Positions 11,162-36,529 of a stretch of DNA of 64,000 bases are shown here, piece by piece. The notes under the pieces were generated by a model. That model did not search any database and had not been told where the DNA came from. It saw only the letters and a list, made by a program, of their open reading frames with translations. The first letter of the stretch is position 1; each line of letters opens with the position of its first letter. Both the position numbers and the translations under genes were made by a program. The stretch is taken from NCBI GenBank assembly GCA_016715365.1, contig JADKAM010000012.1:34785-98784 (forward strand), given 5' to 3'. Origin of the DNA: Chitinophagaceae bacterium. GTDB lineage: Bacteria > Bacteroidota > Bacteroidia > Chitinophagales > Chitinophagaceae.

Positions 11162-11227
11162 TCACGAATTACACGAATTTGCACGTATTAACAGGCAGAT
11201 TTCGTGTTAATTAGTGCCATTCGTGGC
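11162..11227. repeat. CACGAATTACACGAAT-type 10/11-mer tandem inverted repeat (REP-like hairpin)
   Basis: cacgaattacacgaatttgcacgtatt ... atttcgtgttaattagtgccattcgtg. Related copies at 29218-29313 and 55558-55696. Confidence 0.75.
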
Positions 11228-26925: not shown

Positions 26926-27924
26926 TTATTTCTTAACCGCTGCCACACCAAGTATCAGGCTTTCCAGGTTTTTTTCTTTGCAAAAAGTGTTACTTATTTT
27001 TTCAGAGGCATCTAAAAGCTGCTGTATGGTTTTATGACCTGGCCCGGCCAGTTTATATGCCTGAGCCAGGGCATCTTTTTCATTTATTTTAGAGGTCTGC
27101 AGCAGTGCTTCTTTTATCACTTCCACCTTCAGGCCGCTGTCTTTTAAATTGCCCAGTTCGGCAATGAGCCAGCTTAAAGCATAAAAGCGGTTTTTATCAA
27201 AAAGTAAAAAATGTTTTTGTTCCCCGGCATCAGGTAAAATATTATAGGGCGATGTTTTTACAGCCCTGGTTAAATATTTTGAAAGATATTTTGGCGTTGC
27301 CGTTTTAGGACTGCTTAACTGTATGCAGCCTCTTAAGGCCTGTGGGTAAATACTCAGCCATCGTATCATTCTTCTGAATTCATGCAGGTCGTTTTCTACA
27401 TTGGTGAATTGAAAATTCTTTTCATTGATAAACTCCAGTATTTTATTAATAGCAGTAACATAATATTGATGAATATTTTTTATCTCTTCTTTTTCATCCT
27501 GCCAATCAGCTTCTCCAAGTTTTTTTCTGATCTTTTCAATACGGTCAGCATTGTCGCCCAGCCAGTTGTTTTCATGCAGTATTTCATTCAGGCTCTGAAT
27601 TTTTTCACGGCTTTGAGCCTGCAGGTAATTTTTGATGCCCGCCGGTATTTTTTTATTGGTTACAAATTCTTTGGCAAAAGCATCGTAATAATCTATCTGG
27701 CCAATGGCATCTTCCAGCAGTTTAGTATGTTCCTTAATTTTGCTGAATTTCTTTTTATTGTGAATGCCTGCATACATTTTAGCCAAACCTTCCAGCATAA
27801 ATAACGGTGTACGGGCATTATTCTGGTACAACCATAGCCCCGGATTTTTTTGTTTGGAAGATTTTGCAATCAGTTCCTGTAATTGGTTCAGGTGGTATTC
27901 AAATCTTGCTTGTCCGTTTTTCAT
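26926..27924 (-). CDS. Helical hypothetical protein, CHAD-like
   Basis: DLHEFRRMIRWL resembles the CHAD LH..R...R motif; Lys/Arg-rich, all-helical composition. Confidence 0.5.
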   Translation of the reverse strand: MKNGQARFEYHLNQLQELIAKSSKQKNPGLWLYQNNARTPLFMLEGLAKMYAGIHNKKKFSKIKEHTKLLEDAIGQIDYYDAFAKEFVTNKKIPAGIKNYLQAQSREKIQSLNEILHENNWLGDNADRIEKIRKKLGEADWQDEKEEIKNIHQYYVTAINKILEFINEKNFQFTNVENDLHEFRRMIRWLSIYPQALRGCIQLSSPKTATPKYLSKYLTRAVKTSPYNILPDAGEQKHFLLFDKNRFYALSWLIAELGNLKDSGLKVEVIKEALLQTSKINEKDALAQAYKLAGPGHKTIQQLLDASEKISNTFCKEKNLESLILGVAAVKK

Positions 27925-27999: not shown

Positions 28000-29193
28000 T
28001 TAAGGCTTTTCAAAAAACGCCACATTTCCACCCACCCATTCTTTGTTTTTATTATAGCGTGTACCAATCATTTTCCCTTTGCTTAATCTTGCCAGGTTAT
28101 GTACACCAACCGGCCTGTCCCATTCTTTTTTCCAGAAATAAAACAAACGTATCTCCGCTTTGGCAGGCTCTTCGGGGGTTTCAATCACATCAGCGTATTT
28201 TACTTTCTTTTGCAGTATCCAGTTTTCGGGGTCTTTTACGGCCTCAATATCTTCGGGTGTGACATCAATTACTACGCCCATGCCGGCAAAAGAGAATAAA
28301 GGTTTTAACACATAATTCTCCAGGTCGGCAGGCATTTGTTTTAACTCGTTTAAAAAATAAGTTTGTGGTACGTAAGGGTTTTCTATAAAAGGTAAAGTGA
28401 ATTTACTGATGCGGTAAAACCAGTTTGGATGCGGTGCCCATTCCACATCATACGGTTTGGTAAGATCAACCACATCGCCCAGGTCTTCCTGCTTTTGCAG
28501 GTCATCAAAAATAACGCGGTTATAAATTCTTTTAATGGGTGTTTTCACGCCGTTGTTATCGTAAAATAATTTGTCACCTTCTGCAATTAATTTGGTAAGG
28601 CAAACCATTTTAATACCCAGCAATTGTTCGGTGCAATAAAAATCAATACGGGTCTTTTGTTTTTCCGGAAAAATTTCCAGCAGTATTACATTTTCAGGAT
28701 TAAGGTCGCCAACAATAATATCTTTCAGCAATTGAATGTATGTTTCTTTGGTATAACCATTTAAATAAGGAGAAAAATTATCGGGCAGTTCGGCATACTC
28801 GGCAGTTAACTCCGAATGAAATGCCTGGAAAGCATACAGCGTAGGGAATCCCTGCATCTCAATTAACTGAGGCTCCAGTTCTCCTGTTTCGTTTTCACAT
28901 ATACCAAAATCAAAAACCAGGAATTCGGTATGGCTGCTTTCGTTTGGCACTTTTACATTTTCGGGAATGCCACGATCGGTAAGTGCAATAAATTTCGGAT
29001 CAACAATCACATCAATAATATCTTCGCAGGCATGCAGCATTTTTGCTGTAAAATCTTTGGGAACAAATACCGGTGTTTCTGCATTTCTGAAATCAAGCGA
29101 ACCGGGGTACAGGTTTTCCATTTTTACCATATAGGCATCATATTTCTCTTTGGTAAAATTGGCGTTGAATTTTTTTCTTAATTCTTTTATCAT
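28000..29193 (-). CDS. Circularly permuted ATP-grasp-like ligase (glutathionylspermidine-synthase-like fold)
   Basis: DFGI...QLIEMQGFP, IYNRVIFDDL, YVLKPLFSFAGMGV, WILQKKV, EIRLF, in CP-ATP-grasp order. Confidence 0.6.
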   Translation of the reverse strand: MIKELRKKFNANFTKEKYDAYMVKMENLYPGSLDFRNAETPVFVPKDFTAKMLHACEDIIDVIVDPKFIALTDRGIPENVKVPNESSHTEFLVFDFGICENETGELEPQLIEMQGFPTLYAFQAFHSELTAEYAELPDNFSPYLNGYTKETYIQLLKDIIVGDLNPENVILLEIFPEKQKTRIDFYCTEQLLGIKMVCLTKLIAEGDKLFYDNNGVKTPIKRIYNRVIFDDLQKQEDLGDVVDLTKPYDVEWAPHPNWFYRISKFTLPFIENPYVPQTYFLNELKQMPADLENYVLKPLFSFAGMGVVIDVTPEDIEAVKDPENWILQKKVKYADVIETPEEPAKAEIRLFYFWKKEWDRPVGVHNLARLSKGKMIGTRYNKNKEWVGGNVAFFEKP

Positions 29194-29217
29194 GTTAAAT
29201 ACGGCTTTGATTTAAAA

Positions 29218-29313
29218 TTACACGAATAATACTAATTACACGAATTAGAGCATGTTAGAATATATATACACTGAAAATTCGTGTAATTAGCGTAATTCGC
29301 CAAATTTGTGTAA
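29218..29313. repeat. CACGAAT-type tandem inverted repeat hairpin
   Basis: ttacacgaataatactaattacacgaatt ... aattcgtgtaattagcgtaattcgccaaatttgtgtaa. Confidence 0.75.
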
Positions 29314-29321
29314 CTGAATTT

Positions 29322-30167
29322 CTAAACCTCCACCAGTTGCAGGTTATCTACGGCACGAAGTAAAAAATTGGGAAGTATATGGGTGTAGGTCCACATAATT
29401 TTTTCCGGATCGTTTAAATGTTCGATCATAGATTGCCATTTTTCCAGGCCATAATTTTCAACCACTGTCTTTTTCTTTTCTTCAGTCTGCAGGTGCAGGC
29501 TCATGCCAATAGCATCTGCTTCGGGGTGAAACTGGGTGCCAATCATATTCTCGTTAAACCTGATCGCCATTACGGCTCTTTCAAGCGGAATATGCGGCCT
29601 TTCTTTTTCAATGGCTAAAATAGAAGCACCCATTTGGTGCAGTTTATTGTGATTGGGCTCGGTAACCTGGTAATCACGGCTGTCAACAGCGTAAAAAGGA
29701 TCTTTTAAACCATCAAAGATCAGTTCGTCTTTTCCATCAATTAAAAGATGCATGGGGAATATGCCAAACGCCGTACTTTTTCTTTTGCCCACTTTGGCGA
29801 TATGATAATGCCTGCATATTAACTGGAAGGAATGGCAGATGAAAAACACCTGCTTTTTTTGAACGTTGCCTTCGTTATTATTCCAGTGTTCTACTTTATC
29901 CAGCCAGTTAAAATAAACTTTTTCCCATTCGTTGCCTTCGCTTTCCAACGGGCTGCCGGGGCCGCCGGTAGAGATATAAATATCGTAACTGAGATCGGGA
30001 ACCTGTTTTTCCAAACGTACTTCAAATTCATCCCAGGTTAAATCAAGGTGATTGGCTTCTCCAAACTGGTTAAGGATCTCACGGATACAACGCATGCCCT
30101 GGTTGGCAAAGCCCTCATACATATCCAATATCGCTATACGGATGGATTTCTTTTCTGTCCAGTTCAT
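29322..30167 (-). CDS. Class I glutamine amidotransferase-like protein
   Basis: ISTGGPGSP, FFICHSFQL (nucleophile Cys), TQFHPEAD (His-Glu). ATG at 30167. Confidence 0.88.
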   Translation of the reverse strand: MNWTEKKSIRIAILDMYEGFANQGMRCIREILNQFGEANHLDLTWDEFEVRLEKQVPDLSYDIYISTGGPGSPLESEGNEWEKVYFNWLDKVEHWNNNEGNVQKKQVFFICHSFQLICRHYHIAKVGKRKSTAFGIFPMHLLIDGKDELIFDGLKDPFYAVDSRDYQVTEPNHNKLHQMGASILAIEKERPHIPLERAVMAIRFNENMIGTQFHPEADAIGMSLHLQTEEKKKTVVENYGLEKWQSMIEHLNDPEKIMWTYTHILPNFLLRAVDNLQLVEV

Positions 30168-30359
30168 ATACAAACATACCATTTTTTTAAGAGCAGATCT
30201 TTTACGCAATCCTCATTATTTATTAACGGTTGTGGATTAAAATAATTTTAATAAGATGGCTATCAGTAATAAAGTGATATTATTCTTTATCCACTATGAC
30301 CAAACTCATGGATTTCGCCTGATTTAATGACAAACTTGTGTACCGGTAAATAAATTAGA

Positions 30360-31937
30360 ATGGAACAGAACTATAACGAAACAAAGCCTGTTCAAAAATT
30401 GTTTAATTATTGCACAGACTGTAAGCCCAAACCTGGCTCGCCGGAAGAACTGGAGGCATTTGCTAACATTCAGTTGGGTTTGTGTAATCAGTTTGAATTA
30501 TTTTTTCCGGATAACCTGGCTTCTAAAACGATTGTAGTCATTCCAAGCCTGTCGCTCGACCAGGAAGTGCTGGCCAAGGTTAAAGGATCACTGCATTACG
30601 AAGAAAGATTACTTTGTTTGCTGATGTTGCTGCGCATGCCCCGGGCCAATGTGATCTATGTCAGCAGTATGCCCATAGATCCGGTTATTATTGATTATTA
30701 CCTGCACCTGTTGCCGGGTATAACCGGTTATCATGCATGGCAAAGGTTAACGTTAATCTCCTGTTATGATGCTTCGCCCGTTCCACTCACCAAAAAAATT
30801 TTACAAAGGCCCCGGCTTATTCAAAGAATTAAGCAGGCTATACCTCCGGGTAATGTGGCACATATTGCCTGTTTTAATACCACACCTTTAGAGCGTACTT
30901 TGTCTGTACAACTTGACATTCCAATTTATGGTTGCGATCCTTCACTGGTTTACCTGGGTACCAAAAGCGGCAGCCGCCGAACTTTTATGAAAGCAGGAGT
31001 ACCTGTTCCAACCGGTGCCGAAAATTTAACGGGGTATGATGATATTTTACATGCCATTGTTGCTTTAAAAGACATGCATCCGGAGATTAAAAAAGCGGTA
31101 GTTAAATTAAATGATGGTTTTTCCGGTGAAGGAAATGCTGTAATGCAATATCCCGGGGAGCTTTGCGGCAGGGAACTGGAGGATTGGCTGAAAGATAACC
31201 TGATTAAAATACTGAAACCCGTTTCACCGGATATAAGCGTAGATATGTTTCTTGAAAAATTTATTTTGATGGAAGGTATTGTAGAGGCTTATGTAGAAGG
31301 GAAAGAAAAAACTTCGCCATCGGTGCAATGCCGTATTAACCCCATGGGTGATATTGATATTATTTCAACGCACGACCAGGTTTTAAGCGGGGAAGACGGA
31401 CAGGTTTTTGAGGGTGCTCATTTTCCGGCAGATGAAGAATACCGAACCACCATTGCACAGATGACCCGGTGTGTAGCAGAAGTTTTAAAGCAGGAAGGAG
31501 TGGTTGGCCGCTTTGGTGTTGATTTTATTTCGGTAAAGGAAAACAACGAATGGACACACCAGGCTATTGAAATTAACCTGCGTAAAGGCGGAACTACACA
31601 TCCGTTTTTAATGCTGCAGTTTTTAACCAACGGGCATTACAATGAAGCAACGGGTATTTTTGAAACCCCTAACGGGCAACAGTTGTATTATTTTGCATCA
31701 GATAATGTGCAGAGCAATGCCTACAAGGGTTTAACACCACAAGACCTGATTGATATTGCCATGTTTCATGGACTGCATTTTGACGGGGCTACACAAAAAG
31801 GAGTTATGTTTCACATGATCAGCGCCTTATCACAGTATGGAAAAATGGGCATTGTCTGTATCGGTTCCTCAAGAGCCGAAGCATATGCATACTACCTGAA
31901 AACCATAGCCGTGCTGGATGCTGAAACGGAAGAATAG
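30360..31937 (+). CDS. PGM1-related ATP-grasp peptide ligase
   Basis: VVIPSLSLD..HYEERLL pre-grasp region, VVKLNDGFSGEGNA, SPSVQ, STHDQVL, FGVDF, AIEINLRKGGTTHP. Confidence 0.82.
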   Translation: MEQNYNETKPVQKLFNYCTDCKPKPGSPEELEAFANIQLGLCNQFELFFPDNLASKTIVVIPSLSLDQEVLAKVKGSLHYEERLLCLLMLLRMPRANVIYVSSMPIDPVIIDYYLHLLPGITGYHAWQRLTLISCYDASPVPLTKKILQRPRLIQRIKQAIPPGNVAHIACFNTTPLERTLSVQLDIPIYGCDPSLVYLGTKSGSRRTFMKAGVPVPTGAENLTGYDDILHAIVALKDMHPEIKKAVVKLNDGFSGEGNAVMQYPGELCGRELEDWLKDNLIKILKPVSPDISVDMFLEKFILMEGIVEAYVEGKEKTSPSVQCRINPMGDIDIISTHDQVLSGEDGQVFEGAHFPADEEYRTTIAQMTRCVAEVLKQEGVVGRFGVDFISVKENNEWTHQAIEINLRKGGTTHPFLMLQFLTNGHYNEATGIFETPNGQQLYYFASDNVQSNAYKGLTPQDLIDIAMFHGLHFDGATQKGVMFHMISALSQYGKMGIVCIGSSRAEAYAYYLKTIAVLDAETEE

Positions 31938-32023: not shown

Positions 32024-34501
32024 TTATCTTAATAAAATCACTGTTCCTTTCATTTCCACCACGCTTCCGTTCTTATCAATGCCCTTTATCATCCACACAT
32101 AAGTGCCCGATGAAGCCGGTTTACCTTTTAAGGTTCCATCCCAGCCCTTCATCCATGCTCTAGTCTGGTACATCAATGAACCAAAGCGGTCAAACACCCG
32201 AAAATATTCTGTACTGCTGATGCCTACCGGCGTAGGGAAGAATACATCATTCAAACCATCGCCGTTGGGTGTAAAGGCATTGGGTAAATAATAAGTCGGC
32301 CCTTCGTAGGCTTTTACAAATATGGTATCTTCATCGGTACAGCCAATGGCATCGGTAATGTGTACGTAAAAATAGGTATCGTTATAAATGATTGCCTGCG
32401 GGTTTGCAATAAAAGGATTATTCAAAGGCCCTGCAGGACTCCAGACAAAATCAGTTGCGTTGCGGCCGGTACCCAGTAACTGGTGCTGCCTGCCCAGTAT
32501 GGCATTGGTATCATTGCCTGCAAATGCCACCAGTTGGGGCTGCATGGTTACAATCACACTGTCGGTTACAGAAAAATTACAGCCGTAATTATCAGTTACT
32601 GTTAAGGTAAACTGCCGGGTGGTATCTAACCTTACTCCCGTTACTGCAGTATTGGGGCTGGTTAATGAATCCGGCGGGCTCCAGGCAAAATTTACGGTGC
32701 CCGATAAATTGGTTGCGCTGCCAAACAGTGTAGCGTTTGTTTTGTAGCAAACGGTCGTATCCCTGCCGGCATTAGCAATTGGTTTATGTAAAACATTTAT
32801 TGTTATGGAGTCGTTTCTGGTACAAAGCCCCCATTTGGCAATGAGATAATATTTTGTGGTGTCGGTTGGTGTGGCAATGGGTGTTCTTACGGTATCAAAA
32901 TTTAAAGTGGCCCGGGGTGTCCATTTAAAAGTATCGGTTAATGCATTGGTTTGTGGAATTAATGTGATGCCGGTTCCAAAACAAATGGTGCTGTCGGCGC
33001 CAAGTTCAAGGCGCATGGTATCAATTAAAGCGATGGTTCCAGATAAAGATGCCATACAGCCATAAGCATCCCGAACTATAAGGTTATTATAAGTTCCTAC
33101 AGATAAGTTCAAAAACTGATTTGCAGGCTGATAAGTAACACCATTATCTTTTGAATATTCATAACCAGGGTTTCCCCCTGCGGCGGCAATTTCAATAATT
33201 CCATCGTTGTTTGCACATGACGCATCAGTGATTATTGAAGCTGCTGTAATTGACAAAGATTGATAAACTGTAACTGATGTAAAGCCTCCACACAAAGATG
33301 CTACAACCCTTGCATTAACAGTATAATTGCCGGCCAAAACATTAAATACAGGAGATAACTGCCAGGTAGTTCCTCCATCAATTGAATATTCTATGTTAGG
33401 AGCTACAGGAGATGTAACCGTTATTTTTCCCAGGCCGCCGTTGCAACGGGCACTGTCAATGGTTGTAAGAATTGGATTGAGTGTTTTACGAACGATCATA
33501 GTATCTGACCCTTCTGTTTGTATAGCCGGATTATCACACTGCCGGTAAAAAGCCCTTACCACATAACTCATACTGTCTTCAGATTGACAAACCGGCGAAA
33601 AAGTGGCTTCCAGTTCTCCATTACCCAACGCAACAGTAGTACCGGTTGCCATCCATGCCCCGTTTTTATAAAGTGCCACACTATCTAAAAGGGATGTTGT
33701 ACCGCTCGGTACAAAACGCCAGCCTTCGTTTGAAGCATTCCATACCGCATTGTTTCTGCCGGGTACAGCTCTTGCCAGGTCCTGATTCCAGTTTTGTATG
33801 CCCATGATTGCACGCCCGTTATTGGTACTGGTACCGCAGGCAAATGGTTTATCCCTGAGGAACATATCAATGATCCCGGTTCCTTCATACAAAACAATTT
33901 GCTGTGTAACCAGTTCGGCAGGGCAGTCATAGTAGGGAACTTTATGAAAATTTAAAACGAATTTTCTGCACGGTGCAGTGCCCACAATAATGTATTCCAT
34001 TTTCCTGTCGGGCTGTTGCGGAGAAGTGGTAGCCGGATTCGGGTCAATATCGTGAAAGGGCCCCATAATGGTGGCCCTGGGGTAGGTTGCATTTGGTATT
34101 GGAACACCGGCATTGATTACATAATCATTAAAACCACCCTGCAGTGATACATCAAAAGAAATAACCCCATTGGTACCTACTACCAGCGAATTATAATTGG
34201 CACCGTAATAACAAAAAGTAAAAGGTAAAGTTATAATGGGAGAAAATTGATCATCCTGGTATGAAGGATCAACCAAAATTCCGCCAGGGTTTGTAAAAGG
34301 GAATGGCTGATAAGGTATTGATACAACCTGGTAATCATCAGTAGTTCTCACATCCGGTATTCTTGCTTTTAAATCGAGGCAGGTTTGCAGGCATGAAATA
34401 GTGGTATCATTTCCGGCTGCCACACTAAAGCAGGACTGGGATTTTGCTGAATGGGTGAAAAGAAAAAATGCGAGTAAGCTAAACAGTAAAATTTTCTTCA
34501 T
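32024..34501 (-). CDS. T9SS type-B cargo (gliding motility-associated C-terminal domain) with SprB-like repeats
   Basis: Signal peptide, repeated TDASC...GG.P.YEYS units, CTD YLPNAFTPNGDGLND...WDG...GTVILLR. Confidence 0.9.
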   Translation of the reverse strand: MKKILLFSLLAFFLFTHSAKSQSCFSVAAGNDTTISCLQTCLDLKARIPDVRTTDDYQVVSIPYQPFPFTNPGGILVDPSYQDDQFSPIITLPFTFCYYGANYNSLVVGTNGVISFDVSLQGGFNDYVINAGVPIPNATYPRATIMGPFHDIDPNPATTSPQQPDRKMEYIIVGTAPCRKFVLNFHKVPYYDCPAELVTQQIVLYEGTGIIDMFLRDKPFACGTSTNNGRAIMGIQNWNQDLARAVPGRNNAVWNASNEGWRFVPSGTTSLLDSVALYKNGAWMATGTTVALGNGELEATFSPVCQSEDSMSYVVRAFYRQCDNPAIQTEGSDTMIVRKTLNPILTTIDSARCNGGLGKITVTSPVAPNIEYSIDGGTTWQLSPVFNVLAGNYTVNARVVASLCGGFTSVTVYQSLSITAASIITDASCANNDGIIEIAAAGGNPGYEYSKDNGVTYQPANQFLNLSVGTYNNLIVRDAYGCMASLSGTIALIDTMRLELGADSTICFGTGITLIPQTNALTDTFKWTPRATLNFDTVRTPIATPTDTTKYYLIAKWGLCTRNDSITINVLHKPIANAGRDTTVCYKTNATLFGSATNLSGTVNFAWSPPDSLTSPNTAVTGVRLDTTRQFTLTVTDNYGCNFSVTDSVIVTMQPQLVAFAGNDTNAILGRQHQLLGTGRNATDFVWSPAGPLNNPFIANPQAIIYNDTYFYVHITDAIGCTDEDTIFVKAYEGPTYYLPNAFTPNGDGLNDVFFPTPVGISSTEYFRVFDRFGSLMYQTRAWMKGWDGTLKGKPASSGTYVWMIKGIDKNGSVVEMKGTVILLR

Positions 34502-34597
34502 TGCAGTATAATTGGCAGTATTTTGTGCTCTCAAGATAATTAAAATCTTTCAAACGCAGACTGCACCTGCAAAGAGGTTACTAACATAACCTGTATA

Positions 34598-36529
34598 TTA
34601 AAATTTCCATCTCACAAAAGCCTCCATGGCAGCGTATTGTGTAAGTCCAAGGCGGGCATACAATTTTGCTGTATTTGCATTGCGTTCTTCGGCACGCTGC
34701 CAGAACTCACGGTCATCGCTGCCCTGGAAAGGCACACTGTCTTTTTGCGATTGGTGTATAAAAATACCATGGCGTTTTTTTACCACCTGGTCGGGGCTCA
34801 TGGGTATGGCCATTTCAATTTCGGTAATATCCCATTCCTGCCAGGCACCTTTGTACAGCCAGAGCCAGCAGTCGGAGATCCAGTGAGTCGTGAGTTGTGA
34901 GTCGTGCGTGGCTTTAATCCGTTTCAGCGCCTCTATCACCACATCAAAACAAACTTTGTGTGTGCCATGCGGATCGGCAAAATCGCCGGCACAATAAATC
35001 TGATGTGGTTTTATTTCATTCAACAGATCAATGGTTTTCTGTACATCCGCTTCACCCATCGGATTTTTTTCAATGGTGCCGGTTTCATAAAAAGGCAGGT
35101 TCATAAAATGTATCTGCTCATTTTTCAACCCAACATATTTGCAGGTGGCTTTGGCTTCGCATCTTCTTATCAATCCTTTAATGGCACGTATGGCTTCAGT
35201 GTCTTTTTCACTGCTTGTTTTTATTTTTAAAAAAGCGGTGGCTTCATCCAGTATATTTTTACTCTTGGTTTCATCTATGTCAAACATACTTTCGAAACCT
35301 ACAGCAAAGTCAATAAAGCGGGTTACAAACTCATCGGTAACAGCAATATTGCCACTGGTCTGGTAAGCCACATGTACATCATGTCCCTGGTCGTGCAGGC
35401 GCATGAAAGTGCCGCCCATGCTGATGATATCGTCATCGGGGTGAGGGGAGAAGAGTACCACTTTTTTTGGGAACGGTTCATTTCGTTCGGGATGATTGGT
35501 GCGGTATTCAGATACTTTTCCGCCCGGCCATCCGGTAATACTGTCTCTTAATAAATAATAAACCTGCAGGTTAATTTCGTAAGCATCGCCTTTTTCTACC
35601 AGCAGGTCGCTGAGGCCATTATCGTTGTAATCGATATTAGTTAAACTTAAAACGGGCTTATTCAGTTTCATTGCCAGGTTTACCACGGCACGTTTTATCA
35701 TCGTGTTGGTCCACTCGCATTCGCCTGTAAGCCAAGGACTCTTAATGCGGGTTAATTCGCTGGCACATGTCTCGTCAATTACAAACATGCAGTCATCATG
35801 ATTCTGCAAAAGCGAAGCAGGCAGATCTTCGGTATCAATATCTTCTACTGCTTTTTTAATTACCGGGGCCTTCGTTTGGCCCCAGGCCATTAAAATTATT
35901 TTTTTAGATTTTAAGATGGTGTTGATGCCCATGGTAATGGCCATACGTGGTACCTGCGTCATATTACCAAACTCGTAGGCATTGGCAATGCGGGTGCTGT
36001 TGTCTAAACTGATCAACCTTGTTTTTGAGTTGATACTGCTGCCTGGTTCGTTAAAACCAATGTGGCCATTAACACCAATGCCCAGTATCTGCATGTCAAG
36101 TCCGCCTGCATCTTCAATTTGTTTTTCGTAACTGATGCAATGCTCTTTCACTTTGTCTTTTGGTATCATGCCATCGGGCAGGTGATAATTGTTGGGATCA
36201 ATATCGGTTTGCTCAAATAAATTCTTGCGCATAAAATAATGATAACTCTGCAGCGCATCTTTATTCATGGGGTAATACTGATCAAGGTTGAATGTGATGA
36301 CGTTTTTAAAACTCAACCCTTCTTCTTTATGCATACGCACCAGCTCGGCATATAATGTTTTGGGCGATGAACCGGTTGCCAGGCCAATGACAGGCTTTTT
36401 ACCTTCAGCTTCTTTTTCTTTGATGAGTGCTGCAATTTCTTTTGCAACAAAGGCAGAGCCAGAGCCGGAGTCGGGAAATATTTTTACCGGAATTTTTTCT
36501 AAAGAATCGGTGAGGTCTATTTTAGTCAT
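34598..36529 (-). CDS. nagB: Glucosamine-6-phosphate deaminase (long form with PIG-L/LmbE-like C-terminal domain)
   Basis: GLATGSSP, FNLDQYYP, GIGVNGHIGFNEPGS, SPHPDDDIISMGGT, DPHGTH. Confidence 0.96.
   Translation of the reverse strand: MTKIDLTDSLEKIPVKIFPDSGSGSAFVAKEIAALIKEKEAEGKKPVIGLATGSSPKTLYAELVRMHKEEGLSFKNVITFNLDQYYPMNKDALQSYHYFMRKNLFEQTDIDPNNYHLPDGMIPKDKVKEHCISYEKQIEDAGGLDMQILGIGVNGHIGFNEPGSSINSKTRLISLDNSTRIANAYEFGNMTQVPRMAITMGINTILKSKKIILMAWGQTKAPVIKKAVEDIDTEDLPASLLQNHDDCMFVIDETCASELTRIKSPWLTGECEWTNTMIKRAVVNLAMKLNKPVLSLTNIDYNDNGLSDLLVEKGDAYEINLQVYYLLRDSITGWPGGKVSEYRTNHPERNEPFPKKVVLFSPHPDDDIISMGGTFMRLHDQGHDVHVAYQTSGNIAVTDEFVTRFIDFAVGFESMFDIDETKSKNILDEATAFLKIKTSSEKDTEAIRAIKGLIRRCEAKATCKYVGLKNEQIHFMNLPFYETGTIEKNPMGEADVQKTIDLLNEIKPHQIYCAGDFADPHGTHKVCFDVVIEALKRIKATHDSQLTTHWISDCWLWLYKGAWQEWDITEIEMAIPMSPDQVVKKRHGIFIHQSQKDSVPFQGSDDREFWQRAEERNANTAKLYARLGLTQYAAMEAFVRWKF

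Follow-up and report, generated by a model that had tools for sequence, protein, structure and literature searches.

The window analysed here is a 64,000-nt stretch of contig JADKAM010000012.1 from the Ferruginibacter-like genome of Chitinophagaceae bacterium GCA_016715365.1. It contains the distal half of a conserved Bacteroidota amide-ligase operon, in which the gene for a class I glutamine amidotransferase-fold protein (GATase) is followed by those for X397, a predicted ATP-grasp ligase of 397 residues, and H332, a basic protein of 332 residues. A preliminary description of this DNA had combined the GATase and X397 with a divergently transcribed ligase related to PGM1 into a three-gene orphan peptide system. 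All three long open reading frames (ORFs) are present as claimed, with the PGM1-like gene divergent from the other two. Of the proposed system, the GATase and X397 stand as a conserved pair of an amide-ligase system, whereas the PGM1-like ligase lies outside it. Thus, the object of interest is the GATase-X397 pair within a conserved multi-ligase pathway, not the three-gene combination. The best explanation, with a probability of roughly 0.6, is that the operon is split in this genome and encodes a stepwise pathway to a gamma-glutamyl-type peptide or peptide-amine, to which the PGM1-like gene is incidental.

Linkage was assessed in three samples: 41 relatives (25 genomes of the genus, including that of the window, and 16 from other families of the order), 80 species-level Chitinophagaceae loci, and one set of 301 Bacteroidota genomes, to which all phyletic counts below also refer. 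The architecture of the operon was obtained by tblastn and ORF clustering at 25 Bacteroidota loci, of which 20 represent other families of the phylum; a related-locus search with a 12-sequence alignment returned Chitinophagaceae loci only. The nearest homologs of X397, H332, and the 295-aa and 525-aa proteins (the GATase and the PGM1-like ligase, respectively) are found in Ferruginibacter and other Chitinophagaceae. The genes encoding X397, the GATase, and the PGM1-like protein are each strongly conserved, with homologs numbering in the thousands.

The canonical Bacteroidota operon has the order EstA, RimK-like (324 aa), GCS2, GATase, and X397, with EstB encoded divergently from EstA. Both EstA and EstB are PF00756 esterases. 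In distant families, the GCS2 gene (PF04107, 1e-65) lies directly upstream of GATase-X397, and the gene for the 324-aa protein lies upstream of GCS2. The order RimK-GCS2-GATase-X397 was found at 8 of the 25 loci, seven of which also have EstA upstream. Three more loci carry RimK-GCS2-X397 without the GATase, and a fourth (L030) has extra genes between them. Intergenic distances often fall between -4 and 30 nt. The 324-aa protein matches rimK_fam (4.9e-9) and, in PDB, Ddl or biotin carboxylase, and it carries K-P-x-GGG and Q-E-E-I motifs, by which it is classed as a classical, RimK-like ATP-grasp protein. The GCS2 protein, of the YbdK type, passes the NF010039 "carboxylate-amine ligase" model at 519 bits (cut-off 371). 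At two loci, L014 (6375-7577 and 4879-6369) and L028, a Ddl-like ATP-grasp protein (400 aa) and a 496-aa protein are encoded between EstB and the core operon, which brings the number of ligases to four in some lineages.

In the genome of the window, the operon is divided between two contigs. EstB and, divergent from it, RimK-like-GCS2 lie at 195.8-199.0 kb of contig C3, while GATase-X397-H332 lie in the window (contig C12). Orthologs of all of the ligases and of the GATase are therein retained, with the GATase and X397 adjacent, and the sole EstA-like match is 31% identical and found on contig C1. The RimK-like ATP-grasp, the GCS2 carboxylate-amine ligase, and the esterases are partners located beyond the window and so outside the view of the preliminary description. 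An intact form of the same arrangement, with EstB divergent from RimK-GCS2-GATase-X397-H332 and without EstA, exists in Ferruginibacter loci L061, L063, L064, and L068. At these loci GCS2 is directly upstream of the GATase, the position that the PGM1-like gene occupies in the window.

The 525-aa PGM1-like protein matches PF24923 ATP-grasp_IQCH (5e-22, 79 bits; cut-off 27) and PF18105 PGM1_C (1.4e-7, 31.4 bits; cut-off 22.5), and it aligns over approximately 450 residues with BesA (PDB 8yi6; 1.6e-34). These matches bear out its description as a PGM1-related ligase, and its homologs carry the NCBI name "peptide ligase PGM1-related protein." Against the BesA equivalog NF042917 it scores 141 bits (4e-41), far under the cut-off of 750, so that, judged from sequence, it is a relative in the BesA family and not an ortholog. 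The gene is present in 12 of the 41 relatives and adjoins GATase-X397 in five of them (G000, G001, G011, G012, and G023). In the other seven carriers, six congeners and G028, it is found on other contigs, and 13 congeners that have X397 lack it. Adjacency was observed at 5 of the 80 Chitinophagaceae loci, all with an X397 at least 77% identical to that of the window; the linkage assumed in the preliminary description is therefore not kept beyond this subclade. Across the phylum, the gene occurs in 9 of the 301 genomes (absent from 97%), which represent only two clades, and is absent from 68 of the 74 genomes with X397. Taken together, the three samples indicate that the adjacency in the window is shallow and lineage-specific.

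Two other roles for the PGM1-like gene were rejected. It does not belong to a conserved cluster of its own, as no conserved neighbours were found among eight loci elsewhere. It also does not substitute for a lost ligase, since G001, G011, G012, and G023 retain an intact RimK-like gene, indicating no displacement, and GCS2 is also present in the genome of the window. The PGM1-like gene is thus a solo, unrelated chance neighbour that was placed at the breakpoint by rearrangement.

The members of the operon are also coupled in their distribution. X397 is encoded in 74 of the 301 Bacteroidota genomes, nearly always as a single copy, and among the relatives in 24 of the 25 genomes of the genus (that of the window included) and 3 of the 16 from other families of the order. 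Within a genus, X397 proteins are approximately 85-97% identical. The RimK-like gene, present in 89 of the 301 genomes, accompanies X397 in 72 of 74 (Fisher 4e-50) and the GATase in 54 of 54. Both the GATase and X397 occur in 42 genomes, and the GATase occurs without X397 in 12. Coupling to the RimK-like gene persists even without linkage, as is the case throughout Chitinophagaceae.

The 12 X397-less genomes possess a variant operon in which EstA, the RimK-like gene, a CP_ATPgrasp_2 gene (450-474 aa), and the GATase follow one another, as at loci L145-L150 (genomes G222, G053, G167, G326, and G262). A further esterase gene comes after the GATase in two of the loci examined, an ATP-grasp_4 protein is sometimes encoded next, and GCS2 is not at its usual position. 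The constant core therefore consists of the RimK-like gene and the hydrolase set, while "GCS2 ... X397" and the circularly permuted (CP) ATP-grasp appear to be alternative ligase modules. The CP_ATPgrasp_2 protein, which is recognised by Pfam, is encoded between the RimK-like gene and the GATase, and this slot fits X397 as a functional member of the same ligase class.

Single-sequence searches of Pfam, NCBIfam, and PDB with X397 gave no family match. A match to COX2 (E 3e-3) fell below the cut-off and is spurious, CP_ATPgrasp_2 was matched only at E 0.15 and 11.4 bits (cut-off 32), and the thresholds of CP_ATPgrasp_1, GSP_synth, and GSH_synth_ATP were likewise unreached. A profile of 60 homologs, however, matches YgiC (7uk8; 7e-5) and the circularly permuted ATP-grasp protein 3n6x (1.5e-3). 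Foldseek searches with the AlphaFold2 (AF2) model of X397 (pLDDT 95.5) returned 1m0w (3.8e-15) and 3n6x (1.5e-14), as well as 2hgs, 7uk8, 2io7, and 9cjn, with a probability of 1.00 and TM of 0.56-0.65. This set comprises yeast, human, and plant glutathione and homoglutathione synthetases, 3n6x, YgiC/YjfC, GspS, and the fungal ligase Cp1B; E values across it run from 4e-15 to 2e-7, and the next, unrelated match has E > 0.6. The match spans most of the chain, and all 397 residues belong to the ligase fold. X397 has no CHAP amidase domain, its match to 2io7 being to the synthetase part only (TMt 0.43, 587-aa chain). The circularly permuted ATP-grasp of the preliminary description is thus correct at the level of fold, by AF2/Foldseek and profile, though no sequence model supports it.

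Conservation within X397 agrees with this fold. Across the 60 sequences, D95, E112, R226, K264, E347, R349, and R369 are invariant, and K297-P298 and G304/G306 within "LKPLFSFAGxGV" are near-invariant (≥90%). The motifs follow a permuted order, from the acidic "LIELQGFP" (E112) to K297-P298 with the G304/G306 loop and then to E347/R349, and have collinear counterparts in a CP_ATPgrasp_2 protein (hhalign E 1.6e-4, 259 columns). By analogy, these residues are assigned as the nucleotide-binding Lys, the Gly-rich loop, and the acidic metal ligands, and X397 would be an ATP-dependent carboxylate-amine ligase.

In another Bacteroidota family, a sodium:solute symporter (SSF) carries X397 at its C-terminus as a fusion (P0125, G133:C27, and G220:C55), the latter two fusions being open frames of 891 and 875 aa. 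An SSF gene also adjoins X397 in L079 (4186-5913) and GCS2 in the genome of the window (L047 7340-9070). The symporter was rejected as a core member, since it is not conserved among 14 Chitinophagaceae RimK-GCS2 loci (found at 1 of 14, in convergent orientation), and the local SSF has just 21% identity to the fused form. Recurrent yet unconserved, this link hints at import of a substrate.

The 295-aa protein matches PF00117 (33.7 bits, 3.7e-8; cut-off 22.8), and Cys125, His228, and Glu230 are invariant across 11 orthologs, which confirms the class I GATase assignment. Translation probably begins at the ATG at 30182 or 30167, as homolog alignments open near ORF residue 19-24. The closest PDB sequences are MetA (2vdj; 3.9e-4) and an uncharacterised GATase (3l7n). 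The gene is directly upstream of X397 at 59 of the 74 Chitinophagaceae loci with enough flank, and the two genes overlap by 1-4 nt in L014, L027, L029, and L032.

From these components, we infer a pathway in which a small cytoplasmic gamma-glutamyl-type peptide or peptide-amine conjugate would be built in ATP-dependent steps. By analogy with gamma-Glu-Cys ligases and YbdK, the initial amide would come from GCS2, after which the RimK-like enzyme would add a residue. As the terminal ligase, X397 may join the carboxylate of the peptide to a further amino acid or amine through an acyl-phosphate, as glutathione synthetase, GspS, and YgiC do; YgiC and YjfC are described as peptide-spermidine ligases (Pederick, 2023, as cited in PMC12568646). 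The GATase-fold protein is most likely a Cys hydrolase that would act in maturation or turnover, cutting the product or an intermediate at a gamma-glutamyl or amide bond. This role is modelled on the GspS amidase and on PuuD and GGP1, which act on gamma-glutamyl compounds. A literature search found no paper on the gene combination and no published product, in keeping with the preliminary description, which had named none. The thiohistidine-dipeptide route (PMC13674229), which also employs RimK-like and YbdK-like ligases, was considered and rejected, as it needs an NHISS gene that is not in the cluster. A wider proposal, offered tentatively, is that X397 founds an unmodelled family of the glutathione-synthetase fold which, together with the RimK-like, GCS2, GATase, and esterase proteins, makes an undiscovered peptide or peptide-amine kept by about one quarter of Bacteroidota under housekeeping-grade selection, and that in Ferruginibacter H332 could tie this product to a polyphosphate or polyanion store.

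Several observations weigh against a stepwise gamma-glutamyl pathway that operates in this organism. The order of the steps and the gamma-glutamyl character of the product are drawn by analogy only, and GCS2 reached none of the Glu-Cys ligase equivalogs, the best being NF010043 at 334 bits (cut-off 409). The RimK-like gene of the window's genome bears a +1 frameshift relative to three congeners (gene at C3 ~197,096-198,026, L047 10570-11527; frameshift near C3 197,369), while the gene is intact in nearly all other searched genomes of the genus. The frameshift reflects a pseudogene peculiar to the strain or else an indel in the assembly, so the pathway may be defective in this genome unless the assembly is in error. 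The GATase is missing from 32 of the 74 X397 genomes, and in several genomes it is far removed, either on a different contig or at a distance of hundreds of kb. It would thus be accessory in either of two roles, as it could instead be the ammonia donor. The genome encodes BshC (352 bits) and has no canonical GshB, which suggests that a glutathione-like redox thiol is unneeded. In addition, the phyletic Fisher P values (1e-20 to 1e-50) ignore shared ancestry.

The main rival is that the GATase and X397 constitute a two-subunit glutamine-dependent amidotransferase, comparable to CarA/CarB or GatD/MurT. X397 would activate a carboxylate as an acyl-phosphate, which ammonia from the GATase would turn into a carboxamide; the peptide supplied by GCS2 and the RimK-like enzyme would thus be amidated instead of lengthened. 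CarB and other ATP-grasp enzymes receive their ammonia from a GATase, which provides a textbook precedent. The GATase triad is intact, its gene stands immediately upstream of X397, often translationally coupled (-1 or -4 nt), and the two genes stay joined when the operon splits in Chitinophagaceae. On the other hand, 12 of the 54 GATase genomes lack X397 and pair the GATase with a different CP-ATP-grasp; combined with the X397 genomes that lack the GATase and the frequent unlinking of its gene, this disfavours an obligate GATase:X397 complex. The closest PDB sequences of the GATase are, moreover, acyl-enzyme transferases of the MetA type and not synthase-coupled subunits, and X397 is closest in fold to ligases of amino acids or amines. 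We therefore consider such an amidotransferase unlikely, though it deserves more weight than the proposals that follow.

A second proposal is that the product is a glutathione-like low-molecular-weight thiol or its polyamine conjugate, with GCS2 acting as GshA, the RimK-like protein or X397 as glutathione synthetase, X397 in a GspS-like role, and the GATase as the amidase. The family membership of GCS2 fits this scheme, as do the best structural matches of X397 to glutathione and homoglutathione synthetases and GspS, and the lack of a canonical GshB in the genome of the window. The esterases fit as well, since they belong to PF00756, a family that includes S-formylglutathione hydrolase. However, the presence of BshC suggests that bacillithiol probably fills the thiol role, and GCS2 is classed as a carboxylate-amine ligase and not as a Glu-Cys ligase equivalog. 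The system is furthermore restricted to approximately 25-30% of Bacteroidota, and no conserved redox genes lie nearby at the 25 loci. A glutathione-like thiol is thus possible but not indicated, and we hold it to be improbable.

It is more doubtful still that the target of the ligases is a protein or ribosomal peptide, modified through RimK-like C-terminal glutamylation or a Pup-like tag that the GATase and esterases would erase. RimK glutamylates a protein, the GCS2/GS-like fold includes PafA and Dop, and CP-ATP-grasp systems have reportedly been predicted to be peptide-tagging systems. Against this, no conserved small ORF or gene for a tag could fit into the gaps of the compact operons, the 25 loci share no conserved target or precursor gene, and the nearest folds to X397 act on small molecules. 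Least credible of all is a single system of the PGM1-like ligase, GATase, and X397, even if confined to this Ferruginibacter subclade: although the divergent genes share a 150-nt upstream region, their adjacency is held in five related genomes, and the RimK/GATase system is present in 9 of 9 PGM1-like carriers among the 301 (P = 1e-5, uncorrected), the adjacency is limited to one shallow clade and the nine carriers to two, the gene is unlinked or missing in most relatives with X397 and has random neighbours elsewhere, GCS2 holds its position in the intact operons of the genus, and the RimK-like gene has not been displaced in the subclade.

The GATase-X397 spacer is 0-36 nt in most compact operons, compared with 128 nt in the window. 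It contains AATTACACGAAT three times, twice in direct and once in inverted orientation, forming a perfect 16-bp hairpin, and its RNA fold has an energy of -29.5 kcal/mol (z = -3.5). In the whole window, AATTACACGAAT occurs in four copies against 0.69 expected, the fourth being at 11167. Because the compact operons elsewhere are nearly spacer-free, the spacer appears inserted or acquired, and the hairpin may derive from an inserted repeat or act in regulation or processing.

H332 has no Pfam (E ≤ 10), NCBIfam, or PDB sequence match. Its AF2 model (pLDDT 93.6) shows weak similarity by Foldseek to the CHAD structures 3e0s, 6qv7, and 6qv5 (E 8e-3 to 2e-2, TM 0.51-0.60), and its pI is 9.4. The gene follows X397 at 22 of 68 Chitinophagaceae loci, all from Ferruginibacter-level relatives whose X397 is at least approximately 66% identical to that of the window, and it is a Ferruginibacter-specific addition to X397. 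Table 1 lists the features of the locus.

Table 1. Features of the GATase-X397 locus, in window coordinates.
Feature	Position	Strand	Basis and remarks
H332, 332 aa, basic, all-helical	26926..27924	-	AF2/Foldseek remote CHAD likeness; 75 nt downstream of X397, co-directional
X397, predicted 397-aa ATP-grasp ligase	28000..29193	-	AF2, Foldseek, and profile matches; putative terminal ligase of conserved operon
GATase-X397 spacer, 128 nt	29194..29321	-	Three AATTACACGAAT copies, 16-bp hairpin
Class I GATase-fold protein, 295-aa ORF, stand-alone	29322..30209	-	PF00117, intact Cys-His-Glu triad; conserved upstream partner of X397
GATase/PGM1-like divergent intergenic region, 150 nt	30210..30359	.	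Rearrangement breakpoint; GCS2 position in intact operons
PGM1/BesA-related ATP-grasp ligase, 525 aa	30360..31937	+	PF24923, PF18105; lineage-specific neighbour, divergent from GATase

Further along the window, a gene at 34598-36529 encodes a 643-aa protein in which a NagB-type glucosamine-6-phosphate isomerase domain is fused with a PIG-L/LmbE-type de-N-acetylase domain. It adjoins the gene for a type IX secretion system (T9SS) CHU_C/SprB-repeat protein (32024-34534).

The X397 family has thousands of members and no Pfam or NCBIfam model, and it is found in a multi-ligase operon. If the product were identified, four or five gene families now labelled "hypothetical" throughout Bacteroidota would gain a function. 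The product could prove to be an abundant cytoplasmic compound not described before, for example an osmolyte, a storage compound, or a thiol or polyamine conjugate. Annotators should keep the PGM1-like neighbour separate from the multi-ligase system.

Compared with known systems, the model of H332 aligns remotely with the CHAD domain, a polyphosphate-binding helical bundle, and the protein is basic, but its Foldseek E is only about 1e-2, it has no Pfam match, and its tie to the ligases is confined to one genus. The 525-aa protein shares the PGM1_C domain with PGM1, of pheganomycin biosynthesis, and aligns with BesA, an L-propargylglycine--L-glutamate ligase; it differs from both in being a solo gene of variable context with no Bes or pheganomycin pathway genes nearby. 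Similar to E. coli PuuD, plant GGP1, and peptidase C26, the GATase is a stand-alone protein of this fold with a Cys-His-Glu triad, encoded with ATP-dependent ligases of predicted gamma-glutamyl-type amides, although the 295-aa protein has no sequence-level Peptidase_C26 assignment. The pathway is akin in plan to the route from glutathione to glutathionylspermidine, which employs GshA or a YbdK-type GCS2, glutathione synthetase, and GspS, and to E. coli YgiC/YjfC, with a first ligase of the GCS2 family and a terminal ligase of the glutathione-synthetase/GspS/YgiC fold. As in GspS, a Cys-nucleophile hydrolase is associated with the ligase; here it is encoded beside the ligase and has the GATase fold, whereas in GspS a CHAP amidase is fused to it. 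X397 is only 10-16% identical to the glutathione, GspS, and YgiC enzymes, falls under every Pfam threshold, and has no amidase domain. In contrast to the glutathionylspermidine route, the operon adds a RimK-like ligase and two PF00756 esterases, and its host is apparently a bacillithiol user. With the CP-ATP-grasp systems of Iyer, Abhiman, Burroughs and Aravind (2009), represented by 3n6x, X397 shares its fold and a permuted motif order in which the "IELQ" strand precedes K-P...GxG, and a CP_ATPgrasp_2 protein occupies the equivalent operon slot in X397-less genomes. Those systems differ in their partners, as RimK-like, GCS2, GATase, and esterase proteins are found here and no Alpha-E or transglutaminase partner was seen. 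The pathway thus belongs among the ATP-grasp/GCS2 amidoligase pathways, which are of a known kind.

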